64,000 bases of DNA from Akkermansia sp. (lineage in GTDB: Bacteria > Verrucomicrobiota > Verrucomicrobiia > Verrucomicrobiales > Akkermansiaceae): assembly GCA_045576695.1 (NCBI GenBank), contig JAZNGY010000075.1, positions 46,097 through 110,096 of the forward strand, read 5' to 3'. The translations under genes were made by a program, and so were the position numbers. Each line of letters starts with the position of its first letter. Positions within the stretch are counted from its first letter, which is position 1. The notes below the pieces were generated by a model, which made no database searches, was not told the DNA's origin, and saw only the letters and a program-made list of their open reading frames with translations. Shown here one piece after another: positions 20,388 through 53,162 of this stretch.

Positions 20388-20437
20388 ACTCCTTTCAGCA
20401 GGTCGACTTCAAAAAATCGGACTACTTTTTGCAAAAA
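20388..20437 (-). repeat. 50-bp inverted repeat, left copy
   Basis: Reverse complement matches 23798-23848 at about 44 of 50 positions. Confidence 0.9.
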
Positions 20438-20545
20438 AAAATTATTGGCAGTGGAAAATGCTCTATTTTTGCAACAAAAACCACAATATGTAGTACAAAA
20501 GCAGAAAATCCTGTGCCATAATTGCGTATGCACCCTGTGCGCACC

Positions 20546-20596: not shown

Positions 20597-22975
20597 GTGA
20601 GTAAGGAAAGTATTATAAATCATTTTTCAGACGTCGGACTCGTATACCGACTCGACAAGGCCTGTAAGGTCTTGTTCACCCCATACACAGCCCTTTTCAA
20701 GGAAAGAGGATTGGAGTTCAATTTTGAACTTGAGGGCGCAGAAAAGACGGCCCATCTTGACCGCATTCGCGACATTCTGCTCAGCTTGAGTACAGACACG
20801 GAAGCCGGGCGTAGGCTTGCAAACGTGCTTGATGAAATTGTGCTGGTAGATAAGAACTACAGCAAGGTGAGCACATACATAGAAGACATCACTCAGAAAT
20901 GGGGCGATGGCCTACGCGCATCGGGGTACAACATTGGCGAACAGCTGGAGCTTGTCGCAGCATTGTGTACAGATGAGCGCAAGGAAGTGAGCGATGCTAT
21001 GGCAATCATAGTGTCGCGCATACACTCCTTGGATTCTGCCACCAATCGTGACTACCATTGGTTTGGTGACTTTGCGGAAGAGAAAGAGGACGGCTCTGTT
21101 AAGCTGCCTGTTTTCAAAGTGCCTGATGATAAGGATTTGGCTGCTAAAAAAGAAGACCTTGAGGCACAACTTAACGCAGGATTCGAAAAGAATCACTACA
21201 CTACCGATTGCCATGTTGTGCTTCAGCCGAAATCCGCTGATGGCGAAATCTGGGCTCTGGTTGAACACAGCGGCCGCATTGTGGTTAGGGAGAAAATGGA
21301 AGATGGTAAGGCCAGTACCATCAAATATCCACCATTGACGCGAAGCATCGTTGTCTTAGATACTGAGCGCAGAATGCTACGTATCAAGTCTGGTGCTGAA
21401 TGGATGTATAATCTACTGTCCAAGAAATTCTCAAATTTCTTCTGCGGCCATGAGGAGCTATTCCAACAAGGCCAGATGTATTGGTTTGACCCTATCAGCC
21501 GACATGGCTTGGCAAAGGCTTTCAGTATTGCCGATTATAGCACCATTATCAACAAAGCGTATATCGTCTCCATTAAGTGCGATGTCATGGATGGCGCGGA
21601 GGGTGACCAGCTCACCTTAAACAATACGAAAGACAGGGATATCTGTGCCACTTGGGAGAAGTTTAGCAAAGACCATATTCTTTGGATCAGGTCTATTACC
21701 CTGCGCCTGAGAATAAAGGGGTGCAAGAACAGGGTAACTGTAAAGATTGACAAAGAGAAAGGCCTGTTTGTAAGCATGCTTAGTAAGATGGGGCTGGTAA
21801 GAAGCTGGCTGCGCAGACGTGGCTTTGAGAAGCATTACCCCATCAAGGAGTATTGCAGCAAGGAGAGTAAGGCTGCAATACCTGCTGCGTTCTGGCCCAT
21901 TGTAAGGACTCTGCTTGAAACAGGAGAAGTCAGCAAAGCGAACCTGTATAACGTGTTTGACTCGCTTGCCCCAGGTGTCGGCGACTTCGTGAATCCTCGC
22001 ATACTGAAAGAAGTTGCTTCTCCTAAATATGAGAAGAAGTGGACGGATGCGTATGGCCGCGAGTGGGACGTGAAGTATAATGAGGCTACAGACAGCTACT
22101 ATGGCAGCAACATCAATGTTGAACTCGGCATAGAAGCTGGGCCTGACATCGACCCGTCAGAAGTCGAGATTCAGCCCATTAACAAAGATGCCTTGCTGAA
22201 AGACATTCAGACCGCACTCATGAAAAACTCCAGACTCAATATGGATGACATGGGTGACGGCGTCCATCGTCTGGGGCAGCTGAATGCCCTCGGTGTCACA
22301 GCATTCTTGGCAACTGGTACGAACTGGCACCCCGCATTTAAGGGCAACAATGTGACCAACTCTTCGATTGCCGTGGTGACGTTTACCGAATCCCCTCCCG
22401 ATTTGTACAAAGAACAAATTGAGGAGTCCTATATTCAGCACGCATGGCTCGGTAAATTACTGCGCTGGGATATTGCGGAAAAGCGTCTTGTTGAGATCGC
22501 GCCGGTAGAAAGTGAAATCAATGAGAACAATACGCTCATGTTCCAGTCTAACGATACACCGCCTTGGCACAGGTGGCCGCTCGGGTTACCTGAAGAGAGA
22601 TATCGCCATTTATCGCAGGTGGAGTTTATCTTGGGTTGTGATTACGCAACCATTCGCTACGCTGGCGTTGAGAAGCGCTTCACACTTGACGAGCTTGTGA
22701 TGCTTCAGCCAAAACGGCCAAAGCGAAATCCCAATAAGGTGAAAGACCACCCCAATTTCGCCACGCTATTACGATTTATCTGGGCGAATGAGCGTAGCGG
22801 GGATATGGGCTTCGAGTTGAAAGAAACGGGGTCCTCTGGCTCTCGTAAAAATCTGAATGATGATATCGGATTGTTCTTCGGCACAAATGATTGTGTCTGG
22901 GAAGAGATACCAGAGAACCCCGGCAGGTACAGATTAGCGTTTGCTAGTTGTACCACTACTGTGGATGACGATTAA
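20597..22975 (+). CDS. Large hypothetical protein (792 aa)
   Basis: Long ORF with own promoter and RBS; no motif recognised. Confidence 0.8.
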   Translation: MSKESIINHFSDVGLVYRLDKACKVLFTPYTALFKERGLEFNFELEGAEKTAHLDRIRDILLSLSTDTEAGRRLANVLDEIVLVDKNYSKVSTYIEDITQKWGDGLRASGYNIGEQLELVAALCTDERKEVSDAMAIIVSRIHSLDSATNRDYHWFGDFAEEKEDGSVKLPVFKVPDDKDLAAKKEDLEAQLNAGFEKNHYTTDCHVVLQPKSADGEIWALVEHSGRIVVREKMEDGKASTIKYPPLTRSIVVLDTERRMLRIKSGAEWMYNLLSKKFSNFFCGHEELFQQGQMYWFDPISRHGLAKAFSIADYSTIINKAYIVSIKCDVMDGAEGDQLTLNNTKDRDICATWEKFSKDHILWIRSITLRLRIKGCKNRVTVKIDKEKGLFVSMLSKMGLVRSWLRRRGFEKHYPIKEYCSKESKAAIPAAFWPIVRTLLETGEVSKANLYNVFDSLAPGVGDFVNPRILKEVASPKYEKKWTDAYGREWDVKYNEATDSYYGSNINVELGIEAGPDIDPSEVEIQPINKDALLKDIQTALMKNSRLNMDDMGDGVHRLGQLNALGVTAFLATGTNWHPAFKGNNVTNSSIAVVTFTESPPDLYKEQIEESYIQHAWLGKLLRWDIAEKRLVEIAPVESEINENNTLMFQSNDTPPWHRWPLGLPEERYRHLSQVEFILGCDYATIRYAGVEKRFTLDELVMLQPKRPKRNPNKVKDHPNFATLLRFIWANERSGDMGFELKETGSSGSRKNLNDDIGLFFGTNDCVWEEIPENPGRYRLAFASCTTTVDDD

Positions 22976-23640
22976 GCCTTAGCCAATTCAGCTTTCAATA
23001 GCGCAGCAGTAGACTTGTTTAACTTACGGACATAGGATTCATCTACGCCAAGTAGTTGAGCTATGTCCGTATTTTTCATGCCCTCTGCGTGCCAGATAAA
23101 GCACATCTGGGTTCTTTCATCGAGTTTACTCAGATACTGCATCGCTATGGCTGCATCGTTTTTGATGCTAACTGCATTATCGGGGGCGTGTACGCTTTCA
23201 TCGTATAGCACATCACCCCATCTTGTAAACTCAGCGCCGGGCTTATCCCAAGCATCATCGGTAAAGTCATCGAACTGGCAGAAGTTCTCGCTGCCCGATG
23301 CCATTGCCGATGACTTTTTCCCTGTCCCCCGGCGGGATGCCTCACCGTAGTCACCAAGGCGTTTCATGATGAGGCCTTGCATGACAGGTTCAAAGACATC
23401 CATCTCGCAACGGAAACAAGCCAAGCTGCACAAGCTCATCCAAAGTTCTATGCCAAAATCATAGGCCGTTTGGTTGTTCATGAGCCACTTGTCCGTTCCG
23501 TGCCTACGACTGTTGATAGTCTTGGCAAGCATCTGCAAAAGAAGATACTGCCTGTACTCAAGGTCGTAGTTCTTGCTGTTTGTGTCTAATTTGGCGAGGA
23601 TTCTTTCGCCACCCAATGTTATATCGAATGTAAATACCAT
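22972..23640 (-). CDS. Sigma70 region-4-like HTH regulator
   Basis: C-terminal LSKLDERTQMCFIWHAEGMKNTDIAQLLGVDESYVRK. Confidence 0.7.
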   Translation of the reverse strand: MVFTFDITLGGERILAKLDTNSKNYDLEYRQYLLLQMLAKTINSRRHGTDKWLMNNQTAYDFGIELWMSLCSLACFRCEMDVFEPVMQGLIMKRLGDYGEASRRGTGKKSSAMASGSENFCQFDDFTDDAWDKPGAEFTRWGDVLYDESVHAPDNAVSIKNDAAIAMQYLSKLDERTQMCFIWHAEGMKNTDIAQLLGVDESYVRKLNKSTAALLKAELAKA

Positions 23641-23797: not shown

Positions 23798-23848
23798 TTT
23801 TTTGCAGAAAGTAGTCCGATTTTTTCATTTGCACCTGCTGAAAGGAGT
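23798..23848 (+). repeat. 50-bp inverted repeat, right copy
   Basis: ttttttgcagaaagtagtccgattttttcatttgcacctgctgaaaggagt; partner at 20388-20437. Confidence 0.9.
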
Positions 23849-28710: not shown

Positions 28711-28723
28711 GGCTCTTTGGCTC

Positions 28724-28955
28724 GTGACACTTAACGAAGCTGTGACACTGGAGAAATCTAGTGTCACAGCAAAGTGTCATTCTGCTAAGCTGTTGCCTAT
28801 TAAGCTGTTTCTCTCCTTAATGACACTTGTGACACTTTATTGTACAGATAAAGTATATAGGGGAGAAAAGAATAATGAGAAGTGTATACGTGTGAAATTT
28901 ATATATACGTGTATAGGACTCGTTAAAAACGAAAGTGTCATCTGTCATGTGTCAC
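28724..28955. repeat. Eight RTGACAC repeats in both orientations (candidate origin)
   Basis: Forward at 28724, 28742, 28820, 28829; reverse at 28761, 28774, 28935, 28949; AT-rich core between. Confidence 0.7.
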
Positions 28956-28998
28956 AACTCGCCGCCGCACCCTACAACCTTTGACACCATACCCCCTT

Positions 28999-29562
28999 AT
29001 GTCTAAGAACGATTTATACGCCATCAAGGAAGCCTATCGGCGAAAGCTGTACGAAGAAGCCTACGAGAGTGCCGAGGCAAAAGCTTGGCGCGAGTCTCTC
29101 TCCCCGGCTGAACGCGAACGCGCCGAAGCCCTAGGACTTCTACAGGCCTTGCCTGATACGGACGTTAGCAGCCGAAGCCTTGACACCATCCCCCTCAAGA
29201 TGCAGCCCCAGGAAATCATGGAAATAGAAAGCGAAGAACAGTCGGTAGCAGCACCGCTCCGCAACAAGCTCAGTAAGAATCGCGCCGAGATTCTTACCAC
29301 GCTTGGTATGCAGGATGTACAGGAGCTGCAAGCCTTTCTGACTCAGGGCGGCAACCCGAAGCTTCGCGCCGCCTGTCTCAACTACCTACTCGACCAAGGA
29401 AGCACCACCATCGAGGAATGTGCGAAGAAGATGGGGATGAGCAAGCAAGCTTTACACTACCACGTCCGGCAGATTGAGAAGCAGCTGGGCTTGCCACCTA
29501 TGGGCAACCAGCGCAAGCAATCCTCTCGTGAATCCTATCGTCTCAGCAATCGCCGCCGCTAA
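28999..29562 (+). CDS. HTH DNA-binding protein
   Basis: TIEECAKKMGMSKQALHYHVRQIEKQLG; ATG follows the TTTGACA motif. Confidence 0.75.
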   Translation: MSKNDLYAIKEAYRRKLYEEAYESAEAKAWRESLSPAERERAEALGLLQALPDTDVSSRSLDTIPLKMQPQEIMEIESEEQSVAAPLRNKLSKNRAEILTTLGMQDVQELQAFLTQGGNPKLRAACLNYLLDQGSTTIEECAKKMGMSKQALHYHVRQIEKQLGLPPMGNQRKQSSRESYRLSNRRR

Positions 29563-29584
29563 TTTTGACAACTATTCAGAATAT

Positions 29585-30364
29585 ATGGAAACAAACACTT
29601 CTGAAATTGCAATCGAAGAAAGTGGTTGTAGTGTTAACACTACAAGCAAAATGTTACCCGGCATTGTTGAGTCCGGTGTGATAGGTATTCAAATGAGTGG
29701 CAATGGACTCATTATCAGCAAGGAGGATATTACAGCCGAGGATTACAATGCCGTATTCCGTACTGTGCTGTCCATCAACAAATCGAGCTGCTGGCTGCTG
29801 GGTGACATTCTTCTGCTCGGTGACCGCCGCTGGGGCAACCAGTACACCACAGGCAAGTACGAGGAGGCCATGCAAGCTACTGGCTTGTCACGAAATACGC
29901 TCCGCGATATCGTGCGAACGTGCAAGAAGTTCCCGGTAGACAAGCGACATCCCGGCCTGTCCTTTACGCACCACCAAGAGATTGCCCGCACCGATGCCGA
30001 CCCTGACCAGCGCGAAGAAGTCTTACAGAAAGCTGCCGAGGATAAGCTGACATGTACAGCCCTCCGCAAGCAACTGCATCAGACCAAGTTTAAGCCTGAG
30101 CCTGAGGTAGACATGAGCCACCCGCCTGTAGGCGAAGAACCTGACCGCCTGGGGATTCTCGACCTGCCGGAGCGAGTGAGCCCTGATGCCCCGCCTAAGT
30201 GGGATGCTCTCAACTTCGGCCGATGGGCAGCAAAGCAAGAGCCCTGCGAATATACTCGCGAACAATGCGATGCCGCGCTTGAGCTACTGAAGCCTTTGCT
30301 GGAATACCATGAAGAAATCATGTTCCGCCTGAAGGAGCTTGACGAAGCCGTAACCACCGCCTGA
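29585..30364 (+). CDS. LmbU-like DNA-binding protein
   Basis: WLLGD...YEEAMQATGLSRNTLR...RHPGLSFTHHQEIA resembles the LmbU-family core. Confidence 0.6.
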   Translation: METNTSEIAIEESGCSVNTTSKMLPGIVESGVIGIQMSGNGLIISKEDITAEDYNAVFRTVLSINKSSCWLLGDILLLGDRRWGNQYTTGKYEEAMQATGLSRNTLRDIVRTCKKFPVDKRHPGLSFTHHQEIARTDADPDQREEVLQKAAEDKLTCTALRKQLHQTKFKPEPEVDMSHPPVGEEPDRLGILDLPERVSPDAPPKWDALNFGRWAAKQEPCEYTREQCDAALELLKPLLEYHEEIMFRLKELDEAVTTA

Positions 30365-32220: not shown

Positions 32221-32874
32221 ATGTCGAATATCGTTACACCAGCCCAAGCCGATACAGTTCTTGAAGTCAACCGCGCCAATGCTATCAAGCAAGCTATTTC
32301 CAAGGTGAAGTCCAAGAAAACACTCACCAAGGCCGAAGTAGATTTGTTGCAATCCATCGCCTACAGTCCCGGCCAAAAGGGTGACCTGACCATTACCGAA
32401 GCCAAGACCGTTGTTGATTTGGCAGCGGCTCTGGGTGTATGCCGGAGAACGATAGGCAACTGGCGTAAGCTGGAGGGTGCGCCGGAGCCGAAACCGAATG
32501 GCACGCACGATGTCATTGCATGGCGTAAGTTTATGCACGAGAAACGGCTGGATGGTACAGAGCCCGGCGATGAAGAGGGCTTGAAAGTCCGCAAGCTCAT
32601 GGCTGAAATCCATGAAAAAGAGTTCCGCTTGGCTATCCGCAAGGGTGAGTACATCCGCAAAGACCTTGTGCGTGAAGCATGGCTGAGCCGTTGCGGGCGC
32701 GTGGTGAATCTGCTGCGTTCCAAGTTTGAAAAAGAGATGCCACCTGTCTTGGCCGGGAAAGATGCGCCGAGCATACAGGAGGCTCTGGCTCAGGCGATAG
32801 ACGAAGTGTTGACGGCTCTGCACGATGGCACAGGTGCGGACTCCGGCGGCAACAAGGAGAGCTTAACGCCCTGA
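32221..32874 (+). CDS. Terminase small subunit (Nu1-like)
   Basis: HTH DLAAALGVCRRTIGNW, coiled coil; lies before the GpA-type large subunit. Confidence 0.7.
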   Translation: MSNIVTPAQADTVLEVNRANAIKQAISKVKSKKTLTKAEVDLLQSIAYSPGQKGDLTITEAKTVVDLAAALGVCRRTIGNWRKLEGAPEPKPNGTHDVIAWRKFMHEKRLDGTEPGDEEGLKVRKLMAEIHEKEFRLAIRKGEYIRKDLVREAWLSRCGRVVNLLRSKFEKEMPPVLAGKDAPSIQEALAQAIDEVLTALHDGTGADSGGNKESLTP

Positions 32875-32897: not shown

Positions 32898-33254
32898 GTG
32901 CCACCTAAAGCAAAACAAAAGACCTCGGTATTGGAAGAACGCTTCGCCCGCATGTGGGATGCGCTCGGTGGCCCTGTGCTGAAACGCGAGTATCAATTTG
33001 TACCGACCCGCCGCTGGCGTGCGGACTTTGCTTGGGAAGATGCCCACATACTCGTTGAGATTGAGGGCGGCGTTTGGAGTGGAGGTCGGCATCTGACACC
33101 CCGAGGCTTCCTCAATGATGCCGAGAAATACCTCACGGCCACGCTCCAAGGTTGGACTGTCATTCGCCTGACAGCCCCGCAGATTAACCCCGCCACCCTC
33201 AAACAGATTCTTGATTATGCCCGAGAACGAATATCTGGAAGCCCTGTGGCGTGA
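32898..33254 (+). CDS. PD-(D/E)XK endonuclease (DUF559/Vsr-like)
   Basis: RRWRADFAW...LVEIEGG...GRH...KY...GWTVIR. Confidence 0.75.
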   Translation: MPPKAKQKTSVLEERFARMWDALGGPVLKREYQFVPTRRWRADFAWEDAHILVEIEGGVWSGGRHLTPRGFLNDAEKYLTATLQGWTVIRLTAPQINPATLKQILDYARERISGSPVA

Positions 33255-34971
33255 AGCATGGACTCCACCCGACCGCCAAGATGTATGGGCTTGGGCTGAA
33301 CACCATATTGAAAGCATCCCATATTCGCCTATCCCGGGCAGATTCCGAGTCCTCCATTCTCCTATGCTCAAGGAAGTAATGCAGGAAATGGTGAATCCGC
33401 GTACCCGCCTTGTTTCAATCATTGCAGCTGTGCAGAGTTCCAAGTCCACCGCGATTGAGGTGGCTCTCTGCTATATCATATCCAACCTGCCTGGGCCTAC
33501 ACTCTGGCTGGATCAGAACGATGATGACGCCAAAGACCAAGCAGAGGGACGCTTGCGTAAGCTCTTTGATAGCTGCCAGCCAGTCAAAGCCCTGTACCCG
33601 GCAGACAAGTACAAGATGCGCAATACCACCATCCACTTTGCCAACGGCATGACTCTATGGGTGGAGGGCGCATACAACAAGAGCAACCTGCAGCGCCGCT
33701 CTATCCGCTGGCTGATTGGTGACGAAACATGGCGTTGGCCGCAAGGCCACATGGCTGAAGCTGAAGCTCGTACCACCGCTTTCGGCTGGCTGGGCAAGTG
33801 TATCTTCTGCTCACAGGGCGGCTTCGATGGTGACGATACGCACACCAAGTTCGGTACGACCGACCAAAGAGAGTGGATGTTCACCTGTCCGCATTGTGGT
33901 AAGGAACAGGCCTTTTCGTGGACTTGCGTTGAATGGGCAAAGGATTGCAAGGATGCTGATGGTAACTATGACTTCCGCAAGGTACGCGCTACCACTTACA
34001 TGCGCTGCGTCCATTGCCAAGCGCACTTTGAGGACAGAGACGATGTCCGGCGTGATCTCAACGCTTCAGGTCGATTTGTAGTTCAGAATCCTAATGCAGC
34101 TTCCGAATACGTGGGCTTTCATTGGAATGCGCTGGCCACCATGAGCTGGGGCATGCTGGCTGAGCTGTACCTCCGCGCCAAGGCTGCGGCGCGTAAAAGC
34201 GACTATACCCAGCTGCAGCAGTTTTACCAGAAGCGCCTCGCATTGCCTTGGAACGATGTGCAGGAGGATTACCATATCGAAACCACGCCATCTGATTACC
34301 GCATCGGTGAGCCCTGGGAGAATGAGGGTAATATCGGCGGTATATCGTTACGCTTCCTGACTGTAGACGTGCAGCGAGAAAGTTTTTATGTGGTTGTACG
34401 CTCATGGGCGTTGGATGGCAGCTCGCGCATGATGGACTGCGCGCATGTGCAGACGTGGGAGGATATTGTCTCTATGCAGGAGAAGTATGGGGTACGCGCG
34501 AATCTTGTCTTTGTGGATGCCGGCTATTCAACGTACGAGGTGTATGCCCATTGTGCGGAGCATGGATGGACTGCCCTGATGGGTGATAAGCGCAACACGT
34601 TCACACATCGCCCCAGCGGCGGGCAGACTGTTGAGCGATTCTACTCGCCTAAGCGTAGCATCAACCTCGGCTACAACAAAGGCGGTCAGAGTTTCTGCGA
34701 TATGTACTTCTGGAGTAACCTGAACGTAAAGGATGCACTCTTCCGCTTGCGAAAGAATGTTACCGCGCCCCTGTGGGAAGTACCATCCAACGCGCCTACC
34801 GAATATCTCGACATGTTGGACTCCGAAAGCCGTACCTACGATAAAGGACGTTGGATATGGAAGCAGATTGGTGAACGCCCGAACCACTATCTCGACTGTG
34901 AGGCCATGCAGGTCTGCGCAGCTATCATGCTCAAGCTTGTAGGCTCAGAGAGCGTGAGTTCGAGCGAATAA
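33217..34971 (+). CDS. Terminase large subunit, lambda GpA family
   Basis: AAVQSSKS Walker A variant, LIGDE, CPHCG, NHYLDCE nuclease motif. Confidence 0.92.
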   Translation: MPENEYLEALWREAWTPPDRQDVWAWAEHHIESIPYSPIPGRFRVLHSPMLKEVMQEMVNPRTRLVSIIAAVQSSKSTAIEVALCYIISNLPGPTLWLDQNDDDAKDQAEGRLRKLFDSCQPVKALYPADKYKMRNTTIHFANGMTLWVEGAYNKSNLQRRSIRWLIGDETWRWPQGHMAEAEARTTAFGWLGKCIFCSQGGFDGDDTHTKFGTTDQREWMFTCPHCGKEQAFSWTCVEWAKDCKDADGNYDFRKVRATTYMRCVHCQAHFEDRDDVRRDLNASGRFVVQNPNAASEYVGFHWNALATMSWGMLAELYLRAKAAARKSDYTQLQQFYQKRLALPWNDVQEDYHIETTPSDYRIGEPWENEGNIGGISLRFLTVDVQRESFYVVVRSWALDGSSRMMDCAHVQTWEDIVSMQEKYGVRANLVFVDAGYSTYEVYAHCAEHGWTALMGDKRNTFTHRPSGGQTVERFYSPKRSINLGYNKGGQSFCDMYFWSNLNVKDALFRLRKNVTAPLWEVPSNAPTEYLDMLDSESRTYDKGRWIWKQIGERPNHYLDCEAMQVCAAIMLKLVGSESVSSSE

Positions 34972-34979
34972 ACAGAGAC

Positions 34980-35286
34980 TTTAACCCCTGATTTAACCGG
35001 ATTCTTCGAGTTAAATTGAGGTCAAATCGGGGTTAAAGCGGGGTTAGATAGGAGTCAAATTAAGGTCAAATCGCTATCAAACACCTGTCAAATTAAGGTC
35101 AAATTAAGCTCAAATTAAGGTCAAACTGCGGTTAAAGCGGTCAAAAAGCGGTTAAACTGCCCGATTTTAGGTTAAACAGCTGTTAAAGAGCTGTCGAATG
35201 CAGGTCAAATCGAGGTTAGATTGAGGTCAAACTCCTGACAAATCACGGTCAAATCGGGGTCAAATCGGGGTCAAACTCCTGTTGAA
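34980..35286. repeat. Degenerate 11-bp tandem array (~25 units, core GGT(C/T)AAA)
   Basis: Cores every 11 bp at 35010-35131 (12 units) and 35171-35281 (11 units), plus 35140 and 35151; two inverted units at 34980-34999. Confidence 0.9.
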
Positions 35287-35321
35287 GTGCTATCGTCTTT
35301 GACGTGTGTGTGGCTGCGCAC

Positions 35322-35795
35322 TTAATCGTCTTGCTCGTCCTCTATTTTCTTGAGCACAATGTAACTTGCAACGCAACCTACAACCAGACCAATTAACGCA
35401 CCAAGTGCAGGATTGGCGTGTTTGAACAAACAACCAATACCAGCACCAATACCGCTTACAAGAGCTATAACATGGCATGCGATAACGAAACGGCAGACAA
35501 CTCGAACGAGCCGACACGTAGCCGGAAGATTCGCCAGATTGAGTAGCTCAGGGACGGGAAGATTCTCCTTTTCCTCATCGTCATCTTCCTCTTCAGCCTC
35601 AAGTTTAGCTGCTTTTCTTCTTGTCTTGGAGCGTGCAGCAATGACCTCTCCAAGAGGAAGCCATTTTGATTCGCCTTTTTTGCAAACTTGCGTATCATCG
35701 AAGATTTTACCTTCTTGCCGCAATATCATGATATGTTCAAAGGAATAAGTCCCTTTGACCTGATTATTATCATCCGTGTAGTAGTATTCGGCCAT
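35322..35795 (-). CDS. GYF_2 (DUF4339)-like domain membrane protein
   Basis: YYY...QVKGTYS...G.I..DTQVCKKGESKWLPLGEV followed by two TM helices; antisense to late genes. Confidence 0.7.
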   Translation of the reverse strand: MAEYYYTDDNNQVKGTYSFEHIMILRQEGKIFDDTQVCKKGESKWLPLGEVIAARSKTRRKAAKLEAEEEDDDEEKENLPVPELLNLANLPATCRLVRVVCRFVIACHVIALVSGIGAGIGCLFKHANPALGALIGLVVGCVASYIVLKKIEDEQDD

Positions 35796-35873
35796 GGCAT
35801 CCATCATAGTGACAATAGTATTATATATTTGATGGCGAGTCAAGTATGCTTTTTTGACAAGCCGCCGGAGTGC

Positions 35874-36548
35874 ATGGACACTCCACAGATTTATTGCTCC
35901 CACACCGATATCGTTGCAACAGACTCCCTGATTGAGAATCCCCGCAACCCGAACCGCCACCCGGAAGACCAGATTATCGCTCTGGCAAAAATCATACGCC
36001 ACCAAGGCTGGCGCAATCCGATTGTCGTAAGCCGCCGCTCCGGCTTCGTGGTAAAAGGCCATGGCCGCTTGCTTGCTGCCAGAATGCTGGGACTCGACTC
36101 TGTACCTGTCGATTATCAGGAGTATGAGAACGAGGCAGCAGAGTGGGCCGACATGATCGCCGACAACAAGATTGCCGAACTCTCCAACATGGATGAGCAG
36201 ATGCTTAACACCCTCATGCAGGAATTGGAGGGGGAGATTGACTTGGCACTTACAGGCTTTGACGATGCAGCTATCAGCACGATGCTGGCTCAGGCAGAGG
36301 ATATCGAGGACATTCCTGAAGCTGTACCCTTGGATGCTGACAACGACATCACAGTCACCACCATGCCGTTCATTGCGTACGGAGCCAAGAAAGCCTACAT
36401 GCAGCCGGATGAAGTAGAACGCTTTGAGCGTATGCTGAAAAACTACAGCGCAGAACATGGCAACTACAACGGCCTTGTGCTGGAGCTTCTGGAGTACGGC
36501 GATTCTCGCTTCCGTAACACCACCACTCAGAACACCCATGAAAGCTGA
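35874..36548 (+). CDS. ParB/Srx N-terminal domain protein
   Basis: ENPRNPNRHP, GWRNPIVV, GHGRLLAA, IADNK. Confidence 0.85.
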   Translation: MDTPQIYCSHTDIVATDSLIENPRNPNRHPEDQIIALAKIIRHQGWRNPIVVSRRSGFVVKGHGRLLAARMLGLDSVPVDYQEYENEAAEWADMIADNKIAELSNMDEQMLNTLMQELEGEIDLALTGFDDAAISTMLAQAEDIEDIPEAVPLDADNDITVTTMPFIAYGAKKAYMQPDEVERFERMLKNYSAEHGNYNGLVLELLEYGDSRFRNTTTQNTHES

Positions 36549-37962
36549 AAACAGTAAGAAAGCGGAGTTCATACCCTCCTATCCGCTGTCGGCCTTAGCC
36601 CCGGCAGACTACAACCCTCGTAAGCTGGATGAGGACAAGTTCATCAAGCTGCAGGAGAGTCTGCGGAAGTTCGGCGTAATTAAGCCTGTCATTATCAATG
36701 GCGAGAACGGCATCTTGACTGCTGGTCACCAGCGCACCCGAGCCATGAAAGCCATAGGCATCACCCATTGCCCGGCTATCCGACTGCAAGACATCACACG
36801 CACCGATGAAATCCGATTCAACCTCTTCCACAACAGCATCGAAACCAACAAGACTCCGGTCACGCTGAATCTGGAGGGTAGCGAGCTGGAGCCTGAAACG
36901 TACTGCTACATCGAGCCTGAGCGCATCCAGTTCAAACGCAACAACAATGCGCTTATCATTAACGGCATGAGCGGGCTTATCATGCGCTATGGCAGCTGGG
37001 GCAGCGTTGTATGTTCCGAAGATGGGCGCGTGTTGCTCAACTCTGACTACGCTGTAGCTTGCAAACAGCTGCGCGTGTCCTGTCTCTGCTACATGATTCC
37101 CCAGGAACAGGAGGCCGAGATGCTTCGTTACCTGAGTCTCGACTACGGCCAATACTTCTACGATGCCCTGGGCGTGAAGTCCTACAACCAGCTGCATTGC
37201 CAGATGCACCGATTGCAGGGACGCAAGAAGCGACTCATCGTCTCCACCCTTTACGAGAACCACGTTATCCCCACGCTGAAAAAGACCGAGCGTACTGTAG
37301 ACTTCGGTGCCGGGCGATGTGCCTACGCCAAGATGCTTTCCGAGCGCGGTTACAACCTACTTGCCTACGAGCCCCACTTTCAGGACAAGGGCGTGCTGAA
37401 TGTCCGCGAAGTCGTGAAGCAAATCAATGGACTGCATGCCGACCTGAGTCGCAATGGCCTGTATGATGCCGTGGTGCTGGACAGCGTACTCAATTCCGTG
37501 GTGAACAGCCGCTTTGAACATGCCGTGTTGACTACCTGTAACGCGCTACTGAAGCAGGACGGCCGCATCTACATCGGTACTCGCTCGCTCAATTTTACCG
37601 AGCGTCTCAAGACGTTCAAGACCTACAACAGCCACGGCCGCGATATCCAGTTCCTCGATAAAGAAAACTTCGGCGCGACCTACCGCAGCGGCGTCTGGAC
37701 AATGCAGCACTTCCATACCCACGAAAGCCTCCGGGAGTTGCTGCTTCAATACTTCGAGAAAGTCGAGTTCTTCGGTTCTGACTCGCTACCCCAGCTCTAC
37801 GCCATAGCCTACCACCCGAAGAAGCTCAGCCGGGAGAAGATTGAGGAAGCCATCAACACCGAGTTCAACATGGAATACCCCGGTAACTACCGCCACAATA
37901 AGCATGAAAAGCTGACCGCTGAACTTATGCAAAGGATTGAAAGTGAACGTGGATTTATGTAA
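36538..37962 (+). CDS. ParB-like domain fused to class I SAM-dependent methyltransferase
   Basis: PADYNPRK, AGHQR; C-terminal VDFGAGR and LDSVLNSV. Confidence 0.8.
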   Translation: MKAENSKKAEFIPSYPLSALAPADYNPRKLDEDKFIKLQESLRKFGVIKPVIINGENGILTAGHQRTRAMKAIGITHCPAIRLQDITRTDEIRFNLFHNSIETNKTPVTLNLEGSELEPETYCYIEPERIQFKRNNNALIINGMSGLIMRYGSWGSVVCSEDGRVLLNSDYAVACKQLRVSCLCYMIPQEQEAEMLRYLSLDYGQYFYDALGVKSYNQLHCQMHRLQGRKKRLIVSTLYENHVIPTLKKTERTVDFGAGRCAYAKMLSERGYNLLAYEPHFQDKGVLNVREVVKQINGLHADLSRNGLYDAVVLDSVLNSVVNSRFEHAVLTTCNALLKQDGRIYIGTRSLNFTERLKTFKTYNSHGRDIQFLDKENFGATYRSGVWTMQHFHTHESLRELLLQYFEKVEFFGSDSLPQLYAIAYHPKKLSREKIEEAINTEFNMEYPGNYRHNKHEKLTAELMQRIESERGFM

Positions 37963-38013: not shown

Positions 38014-38433
38014 ATGATTATCATCCGAACAATTCAGGTATCAGGCCGCTTTTCCTATCTCTGGCTCAAACACGTTCACGGAGTGAACCTGCGTGAGCAT
38101 TGTGCGCATAGCCTTATCGGAGACTACAACGCCTCTATCCGGCCAAGCATACAGGAGCTGCACAATGTGCCATTGCCGGATGCCCCATACCATTACCTGT
38201 GCGGAGTGAGTTCACCCTACGTCTGGAGCCGGAACTTCCATCTGGCATTCCGGGAGAAAGAGGGTAGCATGCTGCGAGTCTCACGTCATGGTATTGAGAT
38301 TGAAATCGAGAACGCCGAGGAGATTCCATTCAGCGAAGAGGACATCGACCCGGCAGACCCGCACATCGGGCATAAGAGTTACCGAACCTGCCGCAACTGG
38401 CAATTTGCCCACAAGATAGCCAAGTGGCTGTAA
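38014..38433 (+). CDS. Hypothetical protein with own promoter
   Basis: TTGAAA-17-TATACT at 37970-37998; terminator downstream. Confidence 0.65.
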   Translation: MIIIRTIQVSGRFSYLWLKHVHGVNLREHCAHSLIGDYNASIRPSIQELHNVPLPDAPYHYLCGVSSPYVWSRNFHLAFREKEGSMLRVSRHGIEIEIENAEEIPFSEEDIDPADPHIGHKSYRTCRNWQFAHKIAKWL

Positions 38434-38437
38434 TTGA

Positions 38438-38480
38438 AAGAGGACGTATCCACCTGAGCAGATACGTCCTCTTCTTTTTG
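38438..38480. terminator. Bidirectional terminator
   Basis: aagaggacgtatc-N10-gatacgtcctctt between convergent genes. Confidence 0.8.
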
Positions 38481-38495
38481 TGTGGTAAAGTATTC

Positions 38496-38798
38496 TTACT
38501 TGGAAAGCTTGGCCACAGCGTCCTTCAGGTTCTTACCGACCTTGAACTTCACAACTGTGCGGGCGGGGATAGCCACGTCCTTGCCGGGGTCCTTGGGGTT
38601 GCGACCGACCTTAGCTTTCACCTCCTTGGGGCAGAACGTACCGAAGTTGCGGAACACCACAGTATCGCCGTTGCTGACAGCTTCCGTGATGGAATCCACC
38701 ATCTTCTGCACAACCTCCAGTACATCTGCCTGAGTGCAGCCGTTGTCCAGCTGAGCGCAGACCATATTCACGAGTTCTCTCTTGGTGATAGTAGCCAT
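38496..38798 (-). CDS. HU/IHF-family DNA-binding protein
   Basis: TKRELV...VVFRNFGTF...KVGRNPK...IPARTVVKFKVGKNLK. Confidence 0.93.
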   Translation of the reverse strand: MATITKRELVNMVCAQLDNGCTQADVLEVVQKMVDSITEAVSNGDTVVFRNFGTFCPKEVKAKVGRNPKDPGKDVAIPARTVVKFKVGKNLKDAVAKLSK

Positions 38799-38897
38799 AA
38801 GTGTAAAAGTTTGTGACGGTTATTATAGTTCGCTCTGCCGTCTCGGTCAAGCTCTTTCGGCTTAGATTGTGTCTGTTTTTGACACGCCCGCAAGGGT

Positions 38898-46162: not shown

Positions 46163-48578
46163 CGTTACATTCACATTCTCTGGTGACTCCACTTCCTTAC
46201 AGAATGCTCTCAACGAGATTAAGGGGGAAGTAGGTAAGACCAAGGAATCTGTACAAGGACTAGCCGGGCAATTCGTTGCCTCCTTTGCCGCTATTGGTGC
46301 TGCCATCGCTGCGGTTAAGGGGGCTTTTGCCACTCTGGGTGGTATTTCTGCGGAAGCCGCCCGCATGGAGCAGACCGGGCTTGCGTTCAAAGTCATGATG
46401 GGTGATGCCGCTGCAGCTGCGGAGTATGTTGCAAAACTCCGCGAATATGCCGCCGAAACGCCCTTTGAGTTCGGGGATATTTCCGATGCTGGCAAGACCT
46501 TGCTCTCAATGGGTACGGCTGCGGATAAAAGTATTGAGGTTATTCGTAAGCTGGGCGATATCGCTTCGGTTTCCGGCAAGCCGCTCAAAGAGCTTGCGTT
46601 CCTTTATGCCAAGGTGCAGAACTCTGGCCTGAGTAACGAAGTAGCCGAGTCCTTGGAAATGCAAGGCGTGCCGATCCGTAAGTTGATTGCCGAGATGAAA
46701 GGCATTTCTTTTGAGGACGTGTTCAAAGGCATTTCCAAGCGCCAGTTTAATCTTGATGACCTTGATGCAGCCCTCGACAAGCTGACTGGTCCCGGTGGTC
46801 TGTTGGAAAACATGACCAAGCTTCAATCGCAGACTTTCTCCGGCGCATTAAGCACTCTTACAGATGGATTCTCCGCGCTGGCCGTGGAAATGGGTACGCC
46901 TATCAATGCCGCCATTCTTCCGGTGTTAGGAGAGCTGACGGCCTATGTGGATTCATTAACTCCCACAGTTCAGCAATTTGCACAAACTCTGGCTACTGTA
47001 TTTGAGGGAGCAGTAGCAGTCATCACGCCTATTGTCTCCGGCATCGGCGAGCTTGTTTCGATTCTGGGGGGTGCGGAGACTGTCATTGCGTCTGCAGCTG
47101 CTGCCATGCTCTTGTATGTCGGCAATACCAAGACCGCAGTCACCAGCACAGTTTCATTCCGAGCGCAGCTTACAGCCCTTGGTAATACCATCAAAGGATT
47201 GTCGTTCTCTTCCTTTGTGACGGCCTATCGTACAGCTCTTTCCGGCTTACGCACGGCCATGTCCTCCACGCTTGCCGGGCTCAAGGTAACGTGGTCGATT
47301 GCTTGGTCAACAATGGCTACTGTAACCCGAGCTGCCATGGTAGCGGTAAAGGCTGCAATCGTCAGCACCGGCATCGGCCTGATTATTGTCGGCATTGGCG
47401 AAGCCCTGGGCGCTCTCTATTCTTGGTTCATGGGCAACAGCGAGGCCGCAGAGAAAGCTGCTGAATCCACGCGCCAGTTCGAGAAATCACTTCGCAACCT
47501 GAATAAGCAAGCGGATAAGGTGAAAACGTATGAGCAATACGATTCCTTTATGGAGCAACTAGACGAACGCATGGATGACCTGCGTGAGGAGCGCAGCATG
47601 GCCGTAGCCAAGGATGAGGACGAGGAGGTTATCGAGCTCTTAGACCAGCAGCTTGCACGTCTGCGGCAACGGAAACGCCATTACGAAGAAACGCTGCCGA
47701 TTCAGATTGAGGAAGCCATTGCTGCCGAGCGTGCTGCAGAAGCGATGCGCCGCCAACAGGAGGAGGCCGCAGAGCTGGAGCGTAAGCTGGCCGCAGCCCG
47801 CGATAAGCTCAACGACCTGTACCGCCGCCAGCGTGAAACGGAACGAGAGCAGTATCTGTCCGGGCTTGCCCCCGAGGTGCAGATTCAGCTTCGCCTTTCC
47901 GATGCTACAGCTTATGGCCAAGCCCGCCACACGATTGAGTCTCTGCGACAGGAGATGAAGGATATCTCCAATAAATCGATTGTGACGGATGAGGATGTGG
48001 CTCGTTACCAACTGCTGTCCTCCACCTACAATAAAATCGTGGAGCTGCAACGCCGTGGGCGAGAGGAAGCCGAGCGCACGGCTGAAGCTGAACGTCGCAG
48101 GGCTGAGGAAGCCGCCAGACAGGAGCAGGCTCGACAGCGAGCTGCCAGCGACTACGATATGGCCGTGAAGATGTTGCAAGCTGAGATTGCCGGAAATGAG
48201 AAGCGTCTTGCCGTGCTGAAACAACAGCAGCGCATTACTCAGCTTACTGCTGAATATCAGCGCCAGGGATTAGAAGATGCCGAGGCTCGTGCCAAACGCA
48301 TGGTGGCCTTGGAGAAGCAACTCGAACGCCAGCAGGAGAAGCAGCGGGAGCAAGAAGAGAGGCGCCAGCAGCAACAGGGTCGAGGTCGCCCACAGGGCTC
48401 GCGTACATCTGATTCTTTTGCAAGCGTAGGTGGTGGCGGTCGCTCCGTTGTCATTGGTGGGCCACTTATCTCGGAGACGAAGAAGCAGACCCGCTTGCTG
48501 GAGGGCATAGGCAACAACACGAGACGGCCTCCCACGATTAAGGTGTCGGGTAATGTGGAAGCTGTCATCAGCCGTTGA
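46155..48578 (+). CDS. Tape measure protein
   Basis: 807 aa; FAASFAAIG..., ETPFEFGDI tape-measure domain; helical. Confidence 0.9.
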   Translation: MPDVTFTFSGDSTSLQNALNEIKGEVGKTKESVQGLAGQFVASFAAIGAAIAAVKGAFATLGGISAEAARMEQTGLAFKVMMGDAAAAAEYVAKLREYAAETPFEFGDISDAGKTLLSMGTAADKSIEVIRKLGDIASVSGKPLKELAFLYAKVQNSGLSNEVAESLEMQGVPIRKLIAEMKGISFEDVFKGISKRQFNLDDLDAALDKLTGPGGLLENMTKLQSQTFSGALSTLTDGFSALAVEMGTPINAAILPVLGELTAYVDSLTPTVQQFAQTLATVFEGAVAVITPIVSGIGELVSILGGAETVIASAAAAMLLYVGNTKTAVTSTVSFRAQLTALGNTIKGLSFSSFVTAYRTALSGLRTAMSSTLAGLKVTWSIAWSTMATVTRAAMVAVKAAIVSTGIGLIIVGIGEALGALYSWFMGNSEAAEKAAESTRQFEKSLRNLNKQADKVKTYEQYDSFMEQLDERMDDLREERSMAVAKDEDEEVIELLDQQLARLRQRKRHYEETLPIQIEEAIAAERAAEAMRRQQEEAAELERKLAAARDKLNDLYRRQRETEREQYLSGLAPEVQIQLRLSDATAYGQARHTIESLRQEMKDISNKSIVTDEDVARYQLLSSTYNKIVELQRRGREEAERTAEAERRRAEEAARQEQARQRAASDYDMAVKMLQAEIAGNEKRLAVLKQQQRITQLTAEYQRQGLEDAEARAKRMVALEKQLERQQEKQREQEERRQQQQGRGRPQGSRTSDSFASVGGGGRSVVIGGPLISETKKQTRLLEGIGNNTRRPPTIKVSGNVEAVISR

Positions 48579-48602
48579 TTTTGACATCCTGTTCCGTTGT
48601 AT

Positions 48603-49496
48603 ATGGCAACATTACGAACAGGATTCGGCTCTGGTGGTGACAGGCTCGTGTGGTTCGGTAACACGGGCTACATTATCACCGGGCTGACGATTGAACTGAG
48701 CCGCGACCGCGAGACAGGCGATACTGTAGAATTAACCTATGAAGTGCCGGAGGCCAGCGCGATGAGTTCCGTGCCGGAGATGGATTCCGGCATTGACGTG
48801 CTTTCTTCTGTGTCTCTCAGCAAGGCTGTTATCACGCCCGGTGTGGCTGGTGTGGCCAGCGTGAAGCTGACTTACACCAAGCCCAAGGTGGAGGCCGAGG
48901 AAAGCGAGGAGGATGACGATTTGGATGGCTCTGGTGAAGAAGAAGGCTCTGATGAGGGCGGCGGCGGCGAGGAGGGTTCATGGTCTATGGGCGGTGGCTC
49001 GTTCACTACTTCCTTTGACGTGACTGTGGTTGACCAGCCTATTCTGACTCACCCTAAGATGGCCAGTATCTCCGGCGGGCAGCTGGAATACCTCAAGGCG
49101 TTTATGGATGGAGCCCGCCTGTGGGAGCTTGTGCCGGAAGTGGATGGCAGCGGCAAGCCTAAGCTGGATAGTGATGGGCTTCCGGTCATGAAGCAACTCG
49201 GCAAGCTTCTCAGGACTGGCAGTAAAGCCTTTGACCTCATTAACAAGGGGGTGACTTCCTACAAGGATATCATGGCCACTTACACAGTCAGACAGACATC
49301 CCGCTCGGATAAGTCTGATATTTCATCGGTGGGCAAAATCAACAATCCTCCCAAGGCTCCGAAGTTCCCTAATCGTACGTGGTTGCAGGTGTCCTCCAAC
49401 TGCTCCATGAATGATGATGGTAAGACCTATACCATCGAAAACACTTGGCTGCTCTCCGGCCTTGGCGGCTGGGATAAAGACTTGTACGGCTCTTAA
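48603..49496 (+). CDS. Phage minor tail protein
   Basis: Homolog of 582-1478. Confidence 0.7.
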   Translation: MATLRTGFGSGGDRLVWFGNTGYIITGLTIELSRDRETGDTVELTYEVPEASAMSSVPEMDSGIDVLSSVSLSKAVITPGVAGVASVKLTYTKPKVEAEESEEDDDLDGSGEEEGSDEGGGGEEGSWSMGGGSFTTSFDVTVVDQPILTHPKMASISGGQLEYLKAFMDGARLWELVPEVDGSGKPKLDSDGLPVMKQLGKLLRTGSKAFDLINKGVTSYKDIMATYTVRQTSRSDKSDISSVGKINNPPKAPKFPNRTWLQVSSNCSMNDDGKTYTIENTWLLSGLGGWDKDLYGS

Positions 49497-49502
49497 TCTG
49501 CT

Positions 49503-51530: not shown

Positions 51531-51542
51531 TTTCTCCCCGCC

Positions 51543-51785
51543 ATGGCTTGCAACTGTGAAAACATCGACATGAACAGCATCCGCGCCGCTGTCCGACAAC
51601 TCCTCTGGCAGCGGGTTGCGGAGATTGTTCAGAATATCTCCTGCACACACACCAATACCGATGGCCACTACAGCCCCTCGCAATACTGGTATGACCTCGA
51701 CCGCACCGACCGCCGTTCTGTCAGCACCAGTATGAGCGTGGGGCTGCGTGGCAATACCATTGTCATCACTCTTTCCTACGCCTAA
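51543..51785 (+). CDS. Small conserved Cys-containing phage protein
   Basis: Homolog of 3443-3685. Confidence 0.75.
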   Translation: MACNCENIDMNSIRAAVRQLLWQRVAEIVQNISCTHTNTDGHYSPSQYWYDLDRTDRRSVSTSMSVGLRGNTIVITLSYA

Positions 51786-51789
51786 CCCA

Positions 51790-53001
51790 ATGCCTGATAT
51801 GAAAATTGACCTCAACAAGAACACACGCTGCATTTCGATGTCTCCTTGGAGGCAAAGCTTTATGCGCCGCATCTTCCTTGAGCGGGGATTGCAAATGCCA
51901 CCTGTAACGTACCCCATCATTCCCGAGAAGCCTACACGACCCAAGGAGCCCAAGGCTTATTCGAGCCTCGCCCTTACGTTTATGCGGCTAGTTCTGGATG
52001 CAGAGAAAGAGGGCTTGCCGTATCTGATTATCTACGAGGACGATGCTTATCCCTGCAATGCCCCACAGGCTACGCTCGACAAGCTACTTGCCGACCATCC
52101 TCTTCCATCTGACTGTGGGCTTCTGTGCCTGGGGGACAGGAATGGCAACAGTCGGTATCGTGGTCGGCATACGCTCTTGCTGGAGGACTGCCAAGCTCCG
52201 TACACGCCCCTCGTGCCGAATCGTGCCGAGAACAAGGGCAGTCATGCTTTCGTGGTATTCCGACCTGCCTATATCCCATTCGTGCAAGCTATTGCCAGCT
52301 TCGGAGTGACTGATATGTCGTTCTCGCGCATCAGGAATCATTGTGACCTGCAAGCCTATGGTATCTTCTTCGACCCCATATTCAGCCAGCATCGCTACAA
52401 TGGCGGCAATGACCCGGAGCCCGCCCACCTGTACCCTGAGTATTTCATGCACCACAGGCGGGAGCTGGATAAAAGATTCCCTCGGCCTACGCAGCAGACT
52501 CGGTTGCTGGCGAAGCCCGCTCCCCGCTTCTGGTTGTTTGCCAACAATCCCAAGGTGGATGCTGAGGCGTTAGGCATTGCCCCCGATGATGTGCTGGTAT
52601 TTCTCAACCGGGCAAAGCCTTTCGAGCATCTGCGGGACTTACCTAATCGCCGCATCCTCATTGTTCGCCGTAACGCCAGAGACAAAAACTGGTTCACTCC
52701 CTACGGCAAGGACAAGGAACTCTTTTCTCTATTCGAGGACGTGCTGCTTCTGAGTGACAAGGCTTTGGCAAAGGAACGCAGATGGTTTGCTGAATACAAG
52801 TCTGCTACGAAGAACGCTTCTCCTACTACCGGCTGGATCGCGTACCAACTCTTGCGTGAGCATTACCCGGATGCGGAGGTGGTGCTGGTGAACTTTGTGC
52901 CGGATGGCAACAACGGCTCATACAAATGGCAGAAGCATGACTGGCAATATGAGGCTGAGTATTACCGGAAACACGATGTCCCTTGCCGAGTTTTGCTGTG
53001 A
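51790..53001 (+). CDS. Putative two-domain glycosyltransferase (GT25-like + GT29-like)
   Basis: Homolog of 3687-4889 with all motifs retained. Confidence 0.65.
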   Translation: MPDMKIDLNKNTRCISMSPWRQSFMRRIFLERGLQMPPVTYPIIPEKPTRPKEPKAYSSLALTFMRLVLDAEKEGLPYLIIYEDDAYPCNAPQATLDKLLADHPLPSDCGLLCLGDRNGNSRYRGRHTLLLEDCQAPYTPLVPNRAENKGSHAFVVFRPAYIPFVQAIASFGVTDMSFSRIRNHCDLQAYGIFFDPIFSQHRYNGGNDPEPAHLYPEYFMHHRRELDKRFPRPTQQTRLLAKPAPRFWLFANNPKVDAEALGIAPDDVLVFLNRAKPFEHLRDLPNRRILIVRRNARDKNWFTPYGKDKELFSLFEDVLLLSDKALAKERRWFAEYKSATKNASPTTGWIAYQLLREHYPDAEVVLVNFVPDGNNGSYKWQKHDWQYEAEYYRKHDVPCRVLL

Positions 53002-53022
53002 TGTAAAGCGTTGAAAATAAGT

Positions 53023-53162
53023 GCAAAAAGGTGAAAGAAAAAGTAAAAAAGTCCTTGCATCTTGTTCGCAATCTGCTATACTTTCACCATAGACAAAAGG
53101 CTAACGCTTAATACATTACAACACGCAATACGACCATGAGCACCACCACCAAGACCGCCGCC
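53023..53162 (+). repeat. 140-bp direct repeat copy 1 (UP element, promoter, leader, first 9 codons)
   Basis: Matches 53822-53961 with about 3 mismatches. Confidence 0.92.

Follow-up and report, generated by a model that had tools for sequence, protein, structure and literature searches.

A helically phased 11-bp repeat array in a variable slot of an Akkermansia prophage: a possible protein-docking platform

A 64,000-nucleotide stretch of an Akkermansia sp. genome (assembly GCA_045576695.1, contig JAZNGY010000075.1, positions 46,097 to 110,096 of the forward strand), hereafter called the window, exhibits a non-coding array of 2 inverted and 25 direct 11-bp units at 34977-35289, starting 6 nt after the stop codon of the large terminase gene terL. 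The element that bears it is an integrated temperate Akkermansia prophage, which occupies roughly 13-58.9 kb of the window. What is the function of such an array at the end of a terminase gene? Literature searches turned up neither this array nor any account of repeats in phages of Akkermansia. The array fits none of the families that were tested and is best read as a variant of the iteron/centromere-like array theme. Our preferred reading, which we hold tentatively, is that of a DNA-level multi-site protein-docking platform, a piece of non-coding and swappable cargo acting as a putative sink or scaffold.

The direct units follow the consensus nGGTYAAAnnnn, with a GTYAAA core preceded by a G. 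A unit was called where the plus-strand core fits GTYAAA at at least 5 of 6 positions. The cores run from 35010 to 35281 in steps of 11 (11 times), 9, 11, 20 and 11 bp (10 times), i.e. a layout of 12 + 2 + 11 units with two phase shifts of -2 bp between the blocks. Block 1 (35008-35139, plus strand) comprises 12 direct 11-bp units nGGTYAAAnnnn and block 3 (35169-35289, plus strand) comprises 11 direct units, whose copy number is the most variable. The junction between them (35138-35168, plus strand) comprises two units (35138-35159) after the 9-bp step, followed by the 20-bp step with CCCGATTTTAG. At the left edge, the inverted units GACTTTAACCCCT and GATTTAACCGG (34977-34999, minus strand) exhibit TTTAAC cores at 34980 and 34992, 12 bp apart, with position-weight-matrix scores of 10.7 and 13.0 on the minus strand, and a single TTTGAC lies to the right of the array at 35298. 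The initial annotation had described an 11-bp phased array with two blocks and two inverted units, and the register analysis confirms that this description is accurate. The 11-bp period holds as well: autocorrelation reaches 0.62 at lag 11, 0.50 at lag 22 and 0.54 at lag 33, against a maximum over all lags of 0.32 +/- 0.013 on average in 2000 shuffles, none of which exceeded 0.38. Tandem Repeats Finder reports only fragments of the array because the spacers differ.

The array also stands apart from its surroundings. Its GC content is 0.39-0.43, compared with 0.53 for the window, it contains every one of the six exact GGTCAAAT sites in the 64-kb window, and a position-weight-matrix scan of the window revealed no second cluster of units. 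The entire stretch 34972-35321 is non-coding, and an open reading frame (ORF) check of the window found no ORF of at least 40 aa across the array. A CRISPR array was rejected, as the 11-bp units are contiguous and have no unique spacers; the earlier statement that the repeats are neither coding nor CRISPR thus stands. Compared by eye, neither the IHF consensus, nor the Pho box, nor a -35/-10 promoter gave a full match to the unit.

The core is far more constant than the spacer. Within the array, 7 of 150 core positions are mismatched, versus 57 of 125 spacer positions (Fisher p 2e-16), and 23 of the 25 units are distinct; therefore, the array is not a recent product of slippage. The same bias is observed between lineages. 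In L109, a related locus whose first ParB-family protein (ParB#1) is 92% identical to that of the window, the orthologous units differ at 14 of 113 core positions (4 of these changes being C/T at Y) and at 37 of 94 spacer positions (p 9e-6), a contrast that is possibly inflated, as the aligner anchors on the cores.

In order to see how the array varies, about 36 related loci with sequence downstream of terL were compared. The relatives come from Akkermansia genome bins and gut viromes and include loci inside Akkermansia contigs of up to 210 kb; the public runs were examined as assembled contigs. The array is carried by roughly a dozen of them and is absent from about 25 (roughly two thirds). 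The lineage with 99% identical terL exhibits one and the same array with a differing number of units: about 8 in L001, L002, L100 and the runs X25/X26, 25 in the window, about 26-28 in L017 and L016, and about 31 in L003 and L013, where block 3 is a nearly homogeneous run. Single samples hold coexisting array variants, including variants with and without the gene that follows the array in the window (described below), and contig breaks as well as 11- and 22-bp indels are found in block 3 in the public runs. The diverged array of L109 has about 27 slots and the same 9/11/20 junction, a step pattern that is common to the window, L003, L013, L016, L017 and L109. The inverted units of the left edge are identical in L001, L003, L016 and L017 and conserved in L109.

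A second architecture is present at the same site in L004, L006, L014 and L018, whose terL is 82% identical. It consists of 7-12 copies of a 43-bp repeat, GATTTAACCGG GATTTATGCC GATTTGACCGT GTTAAACTCCT (11+10+11+11 bp), with three inverted cores and one direct core. The CCTGATTTAACCGG stretch of the left edge of the window array is identical at 14 of 14 positions to the 43-bp unit of L004. A period of about 10.75-11 bp is common to both architectures, as is the core, but the orientation of the core flips.

These observations bear on whether the array has a function at all. A neutral or selfish minisatellite, i.e. a junction sequence amplified by slippage without any function, would account for the extreme variation in copy number, for the near-homogeneous block 3 of L003 and L013 and for the dispensability of the array. 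It does not readily account for 23 distinct units of 25 with a nearly invariant core, for substitutions that avoid the core between lineages, for the conservation of the 9/11/20 junction in the diverged L109, or for a second architecture with the same core and phasing, and we consider it improbable. The initial annotation had regarded absence from relatives as speaking against its proposals; the array is indeed absent from most relatives, but three lineages keep it under purifying selection, which suggests that it is functional. At the same time, the array seems to be dispensable, because it varies from 8 to about 31 units among near-identical phages and because most relatives have either nothing or defence genes at this site.

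The two architectures also bear on the level at which the array would act. As the helical phase is kept while the orientation is not, they argue for a function read on double-stranded DNA rather than on RNA, and base-specifically, with one site per helical turn. An RNA-level element in the 3' untranslated region of terL or the 5' untranslated region of ParB#1 would act as a repeated GGUYAAA(U) sponge for an RNA-binding protein or an RNase, in an anti-Abi mimicry similar to that of a pseudo-ToxI, or as a source of small RNA. Phage pseudo-ToxI repeats are known to expand to escape ToxIN. The array is located in a defence/counter-defence slot, every variant has at least one sense-strand GUYAAA per repeat, and a metatranscriptome contig spans terL, the array and ParB#1, although the RNA data consist of contigs and may include DNA. 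Nevertheless, the 43-bp lineage mostly reverses the core orientation while keeping the helical phasing, both strands and the 43-nt repeats fold only slightly better than shuffles (z -2.2 to -2.7), into a diffuse ensemble that has no defined structure, and neither the array nor the neighbouring non-coding piece has a match in Rfam. Furthermore, no sigma-70 promoter or terminator above background was found at the array, so that none frames it. The comparison with type III antitoxins, in which tandem RNA repeats of about 36-45 nt lie between a promoter and a terminator ahead of an endoribonuclease toxin gene, is mixed: one lineage does have 43-nt repeats, whereas the units of the window lineage are 11 nt long and oppositely oriented, and neither a toxin gene nor a promoter or terminator framing the array was seen. 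We regard a role at the RNA level as quite unlikely.

The location of the array is equally informative. In the window, the gap between terL and ParB#1 (34972-35851) ends at an TTTTGACA signal (35852-35859, plus strand), which lies 14 nt upstream of the ATG of ParB#1, is kept in relatives and forms the right border of a variable slot. The sites of L022, L023, L101 and L108 are empty, with about 10-30 nt from the terL stop to this signal. In other relatives without array, the slot is filled by genes of low GC content, which have near-leaderless starts and bring sigma-70-like promoters of their own; in A. muciniphila, leaderless transcripts are found at about 10% of the transcription start sites (PMC4782308). 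Across the loci L007-L030 and L102-L105, the cargo genes comprise a Lit-like Peptidase_U49 (L024), PDC-S15/FRG (L008), a NYN nuclease (L009), YefM-YoeB (L029) and an 8xMP membrane protein (L011), besides several genes without assignment; some of the cargo has known or candidate defence functions. The terL-ParB#1 gap is thus a cargo hot spot with a defence flavour, of which the array is one alternative content. In L016, L004 and X25, the array is directly upstream of the TTTTGACA signal of ParB#1, whereas three loci (the window, L003 and L013) have a 500-bp gene in between. This gene (35322-35807, minus strand, convergent with terL) is a moron that encodes a 161-aa protein comprising a GYF_2 domain and a hydrophobic C-terminal region which, judged by eye, resembles two transmembrane segments. 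It has its own sigma-70-like promoter at 35843-35815 and is found as cargo only in the window, L003 and L013. The ORF of 416 aa listed at 35322-36572 is for the most part an antisense shadow of ParB#1. Variants that lack the GYF_2 gene have a conserved non-coding stretch of about 160-215 nt between the array and ParB#1 (L001:4925-5085, L017:8070-8250, L109:1100-1262); it ends in a GC-rich hairpin and a T-run (GGGTCGCTCGGTAGCTTCGGTTGCCGAGCGAAC TTCCTTTTTT) and could be a small RNA or a terminator.

As the array adjoins terL and resembles an iteron cluster, a packaging recognition site (pac or cosB for TerS) or replication-origin iterons could be considered. The terminase genes of the window are terS (32221-32874) and terL (33211-34971, plus strand), the latter encoding a lambda gpA-type large terminase with ATPase and nuclease domains (PF05876, 4.8e-33; PF20454, 2.4e-21; phrog_15). 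A pac or cos site is expected to be conserved with the terminase, but the array is absent from about 25 relatives, and array-less relatives keep terS at 73-79%, terL at 75-83% and the ParB genes at about 78-80% identity, together with related primase and polymerase genes. Besides a serine recombinase, the lysogeny and replication genes of the window comprise a DUF2800 nuclease, a helicase, a family-A polymerase and a primase; the polymerase, primase and helicase genes are located 6-15 kb from the array, which is missing beside the same replication genes in relatives, and neither an initiator gene nor an AT-rich unwinding stretch was observed nearby. Better candidates for a core cis site (pac/cos, origin or late control) than the array are the short-repeat clusters that lie at a conserved position upstream of terS, at the early/late boundary. 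In the window, RTGACAC occurs 9 times within 300 bp (28720-28960) around an AT-rich centre, and the same cluster is found at the same relative position in L008, L013, L016, L017, L020, L021, L030, L107 and L108. A TGGGAA-type cluster (TCATTCCCACTT) is present instead or as well in L009, L011, L023 (1836-1940), L025 and L103-L105. A packaging or origin function, which the initial annotation had listed among its options, is accordingly disfavoured, and we regard it as highly improbable. L029, a distant relative, exhibits three repeats of about 30 bp (1810-1930), each with the palindrome GTCGTGTTAACACGAC, in the 5' part of the gene of an LmbU-like regulator; they may be a binding site embedded in the gene.

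The proximity of two ParB_N genes raises the possibility of a centromere-like or ParB-loading site, serving DNA segregation or organisation or the loading of a ParB-methyltransferase. ParB#1 (35874-36548, plus strand) starts 588 bp past the array and comprises a ParB_N domain of the CTP-binding type and a small C-terminal domain; it is followed by a fusion of ParB_N and methyltransferase (about 36538-37962, plus strand). Foldseek matches of ParB#1 to ParB, Noc and KorB indicate a ParB_N domain of the CTP-binding type. In addition, the array abuts the start of ParB#1 in L016 and L004. Two plasmid centromeres resemble the two architectures. The first is R1 parC, with 11-bp direct iterons in two blocks that are bound co-operatively unit by unit (PMC4949242). 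Like parC, the array is a non-coding locus of tandem 11-bp units arranged in blocks on one helical face. Unlike parC, where 2 x 5 iterons lie on either side of the parMR promoter and which requires ParR, a ribbon-helix-helix protein, and ParM, the array has 12 + 2 + 11 units, another motif and no ParR or ParM in view; it is flanked by terL, the GYF membrane moron and ParB_N proteins, belongs to an integrated prophage instead of an autonomous low-copy replicon, and is missing in most relatives. The second is F sopC, with 12 direct 43-bp repeats, each with an inverted-repeat binding site (PMC3177203). The arrays of L006 and L014 (12.1 x 43 bp, each unit with an inverted core pair, next to ParB-family genes) equal this layout, but the sequences are unrelated, and SopB has a helix-turn-helix (HTH) motif and a SopA partner, neither of which is seen for ParB#1. 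The match of 12 x 43 bp may be a coincidence, 43 bp being about 4 helical turns. In the F plasmid, a single sopC repeat suffices.

Several results speak against such a centromere. ParB#1 has no recognisable HTH. Its C-terminal domain, a beta-hairpin followed by two helices in the AlphaFold model (predicted local distance difference test score 80), matches no DNA-binding fold: no significant fold match was found in the PDB, the best Foldseek E value being about 5, nor any relevant PDB sequence match. The idea that this domain is a ribbon-helix-helix reading the repeats was rejected, as the modelled fold differs and gave no ribbon-helix-helix match. No ParA, ParM or TubZ was found among the ORFs scanned, no ParR partner was seen, and no gene flanking the array matched an actin-like or ribbon-helix-helix family. 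The ParB genes persist at about 78-80% identity in relatives where the array is missing, and the element, which encodes a serine recombinase, is integrated as a prophage. The centromere-like option of the initial annotation is thus disfavoured, and we consider it as improbable as the minisatellite.

A further possibility is that the array acts through its shape. AAA and GG alternate at each half turn with an 11-bp period, and phased A-tracts bend DNA, so that the array could be a curved upstream activating element or insulator for the operon comprising ParB#1, methyltransferase, lysis and portal genes, or could block read-through between terL and the cargo. Its position directly upstream of the ParB#1 signal in L016, L004 and X25 would suit this role. 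However, the G, T and Y of the core are as conserved as the A-tract, which suggests base-specific reading, and the arrays of the window, L003 and L013 are cut off from ParB#1 by the 500-bp gene. Curvature as the main function is thus as unlikely as a role at the RNA level.

The combination of a core of about 7 bp, a free 4-bp spacer, direct repeats and occasional inverted units points to a head-to-tail binder on one face of the helix. In the OmpR/PhoB family, regulators sit head to tail on direct repeats of 7 bp that are separated by 4-bp spacers (PMC4832192, PMC4415409), and the 11-bp direct repeat architecture of this type, known from Pho boxes and from the direct repeats of ArcA and PhoP, is also found in PMC4173790. 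Ribbon-helix-helix centromere binders such as ParR (PMC4949242) are another example of such binding along one face. The array has the same ~7-bp core and ~4-bp spacer, with the information concentrated in GGTYAAA and the spacer free, and the cores are alike (CTGTCAT versus (C)TGTCAAA/GGTTAAA here). It differs from natural regulons, which exhibit 2-6 repeats at promoters, by its at least 25 repeats in a gap at the end of a gene. TTAA-type cores are also known among the sites of the OmpR/PhoB family. A winged-helix regulator was not found in the window by tblastn with the DNA-binding domains of E. coli PhoB and OmpR, which is a weak test.

In the docking platform that we favour, each 11-bp unit would expose its GGTYAAA core on a common face of the helix, and a sequence-specific protein would probably bind unit by unit, head to tail, possibly as a co-operative filament coating about 280 bp. 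The array stands outside the core machinery of the phage, carried in the slot between terL and the first ParB gene, and its length would change fast via replication slippage or unequal recombination. Its most likely role would be to hold or titrate a DNA-binding factor, as a sink or scaffold of high capacity. This fits best because the array is dispensable, lies among defence genes and changes quickly in copy number. What the data show is the array itself, its phasing and variability, the selection on its core, its dispensability and its place in a defence slot; that a protein binds it, which protein this would be, and that it serves titration are inferred. The factor could be the ECF-like (extracytoplasmic function) sigma factor or a late regulator of the phage itself, a factor of competing related phages, or an OmpR/PhoB-type regulator of the host; the LmbU-like regulator (29474-30364), TerS and an IHF/HU-like protein are further candidates. 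The protein-loading filament site proposed in the initial annotation agrees with this in its general idea of helically phased loading, which suits the conserved core, the free spacer, the tolerance of both orientations and the 11-bp and 43-bp phasing, but not in the centromere, packaging or origin function attached to it. Iteron sinks, phage-encoded resistance ('Per') and P1 incA are dispensable, copy-number-dependent clusters of sites that titrate a DNA-binding protein. The array resembles them as a dispensable cluster of sites, with the difference that theirs copy a known origin and bind a known initiator. A more specific version, which we regard as unlikely though worth stating, is a defence or regulatory moron in which some 25-30 pseudo-sites form a decoy for a factor, tuning the phage's own late switch or blunting superinfecting relatives, with copy number as a dosage knob. 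Candidate targets would be the late ECF-like sigma holoenzyme, another essential protein of the phage family, or a host response regulator.

A number of points weigh against this docking platform, in addition to the possible inflation of the comparison with L109. No gene co-occurs cleanly with the array within 6 kb on either side or in the early region, and a primase-anchored scan for co-occurring genes had too few relatives. The only lead is a module comprising the gene of the divergent ECF-type sigma factor (22972-23640, minus strand; Sigma70_r4_2; TIGR02937 over residues 55-218 with an E value of 1.1e-6, below the curated cut-off), a candidate reader of TTGAC-like motifs, and a 792-aa ORF beside it (20597-22975, plus strand). 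These genes are 98-99% identical in a contig with a long array (L110) and 43-49% identical in two with 43-bp arrays (L112, L113); a short-array contig (L111) has a very different allele in their place, and they went undetected in L115 and L116, whose terL-ParB#1 gap is covered and free of arrays, as well as in L117, whose gap is not covered. The link thus rests on three or four contigs, and the short-array phage keeps a sigma factor of the same family with a similar recognition helix, so that the module is only a weak lead to the binder. Moreover, selection for DNA shape alone could account for the phased A3/GG pattern, and the array is probably transcribed, as indicated by the metatranscriptome contig. 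Lastly, 11-bp GGTCAAA-like arrays occur in many unrelated viral contigs and in mixed contexts, which makes the motif non-diagnostic: a scan of viral contigs for three phased GGTYAAA units, which had no scrambled-core control, gave 64 matches, of which about 25 were true 11-bp arrays, in giant viruses and unrelated phages, near primase, Xre regulator, integrase or capsid genes. As no common context emerged, these arrays were dropped as a guide to function.

Two further observations concern these subjects. The 792-aa ORF and sigma module is bracketed by a 51-bp inverted repeat (20388-20438 and 23798-23848, 88% identical), and its allele is very divergent in L111, which is otherwise 98-99% identical; the repeat may be a duplicated divergent promoter/operator or mark the edges of an exchange cassette. 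Among the viral contigs, intergenic arrays of 5-11 units with GGTCAAA/GGTTAAA-like cores are present in L038, L041, L042, L044, L049, L050 and L053, as well as in L054, L060, L066, L075, L090, L096 and L099; in L041, two arrays flank a VapE-type primase region.

The minus strand of the array recalls the TTTTGACA signal, of which the window has 10 copies (559, 4884, 29563, 32876, 35852, 38877, 42121, 44712, 48579 and 57635), all on the plus strand, compared with 2.3 expected on both strands together. Each copy is located 12-16 nt upstream of the ATG of a late or structural gene. The signal frequently contains or adjoins the stop codon of the preceding gene, and it is followed by tATGG(A/C); a clear Shine-Dalgarno sequence is seen at none of these starts. 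TTGACAcc variants precede two more ORFs at about 28977 and 29183. This signal may be a late promoter, i.e. a -10-like element for a phage sigma factor with a very short leader, for which T4 late promoters offer an analogy, or else a translation signal. Mycobacteriophage L5 stoperators are short asymmetric sites located in one orientation at gene junctions. They resemble the dispersed TTTTGACA signals, which share TTTGAC with the array, and differ from the array in being dispersed single repressor sites with no tandem phased arrangement. The units of the array on the minus strand (GATTTGACC) and the signal TTTTGACA(a/c) have only TTTGAC in common, their flanks being consistently different. A decoy for a TTTGACA-binding factor, which the initial annotation had also suggested, could still be imagined but is unsupported.

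With regard to the rest of the element, the prophage exhibits a lambda-type terminase and a serine recombinase (14840-16129), with cellular genes on its flanks. Cultured phages gave no DNA match and a best terL match of 25% identity, with no annotated relatives in DNA and protein searches. Downstream of the ParB genes, the late region comprises an IHF/HU-like gene (38496-38798, minus strand), which is hidden beneath a longer plus-strand ORF (38424-38816), followed by an endolysin, a lambda-type portal and a protease. The 99% lineage has the IHF/HU-like gene, L009 and L011 have a more diverged version, and the lineage with 43-bp arrays lacks it. Window positions 1-6600 and 48013-56750 are two tail/late modules that are about 72-78% identical over aligned blocks, with 77% for the tail module at 1-6600; the window thus also contains the end of a second related prophage, set off from the complete one by the gene of a 1465-aa M16 peptidase. 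At the other end, metK (S-adenosylmethionine synthetase, 57635-58858) is preceded by a terminator and then an TTTTGACA signal, has the same start context as ParB#1 (ATGGACACTC), and its N-terminus is about 18 residues longer than the start of the Pfam domain. Because of this late-type signal and the start shared with ParB#1, the metK junction may be phage-derived, with either a prophage end replacing the 5' end of metK or a phage carrying metK beside its methyltransferase.

Accessory hot spots of prophages are usually read as lists of proteins, whereas here a non-coding array with sequence constraint fills the slot. If titration or scaffolding is indeed its role, 'sponges' of non-coding DNA would have to be counted among the means of conflict between phages and between phage and host, and would escape gene-centred defence finders. 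The array would then also offer a way to a DNA-binding protein and to the control of late genes in the phages of Akkermansia, a medically relevant gut bacterium. Even if it were structural or neutral, it would be a useful hypervariable strain marker for this phage family.

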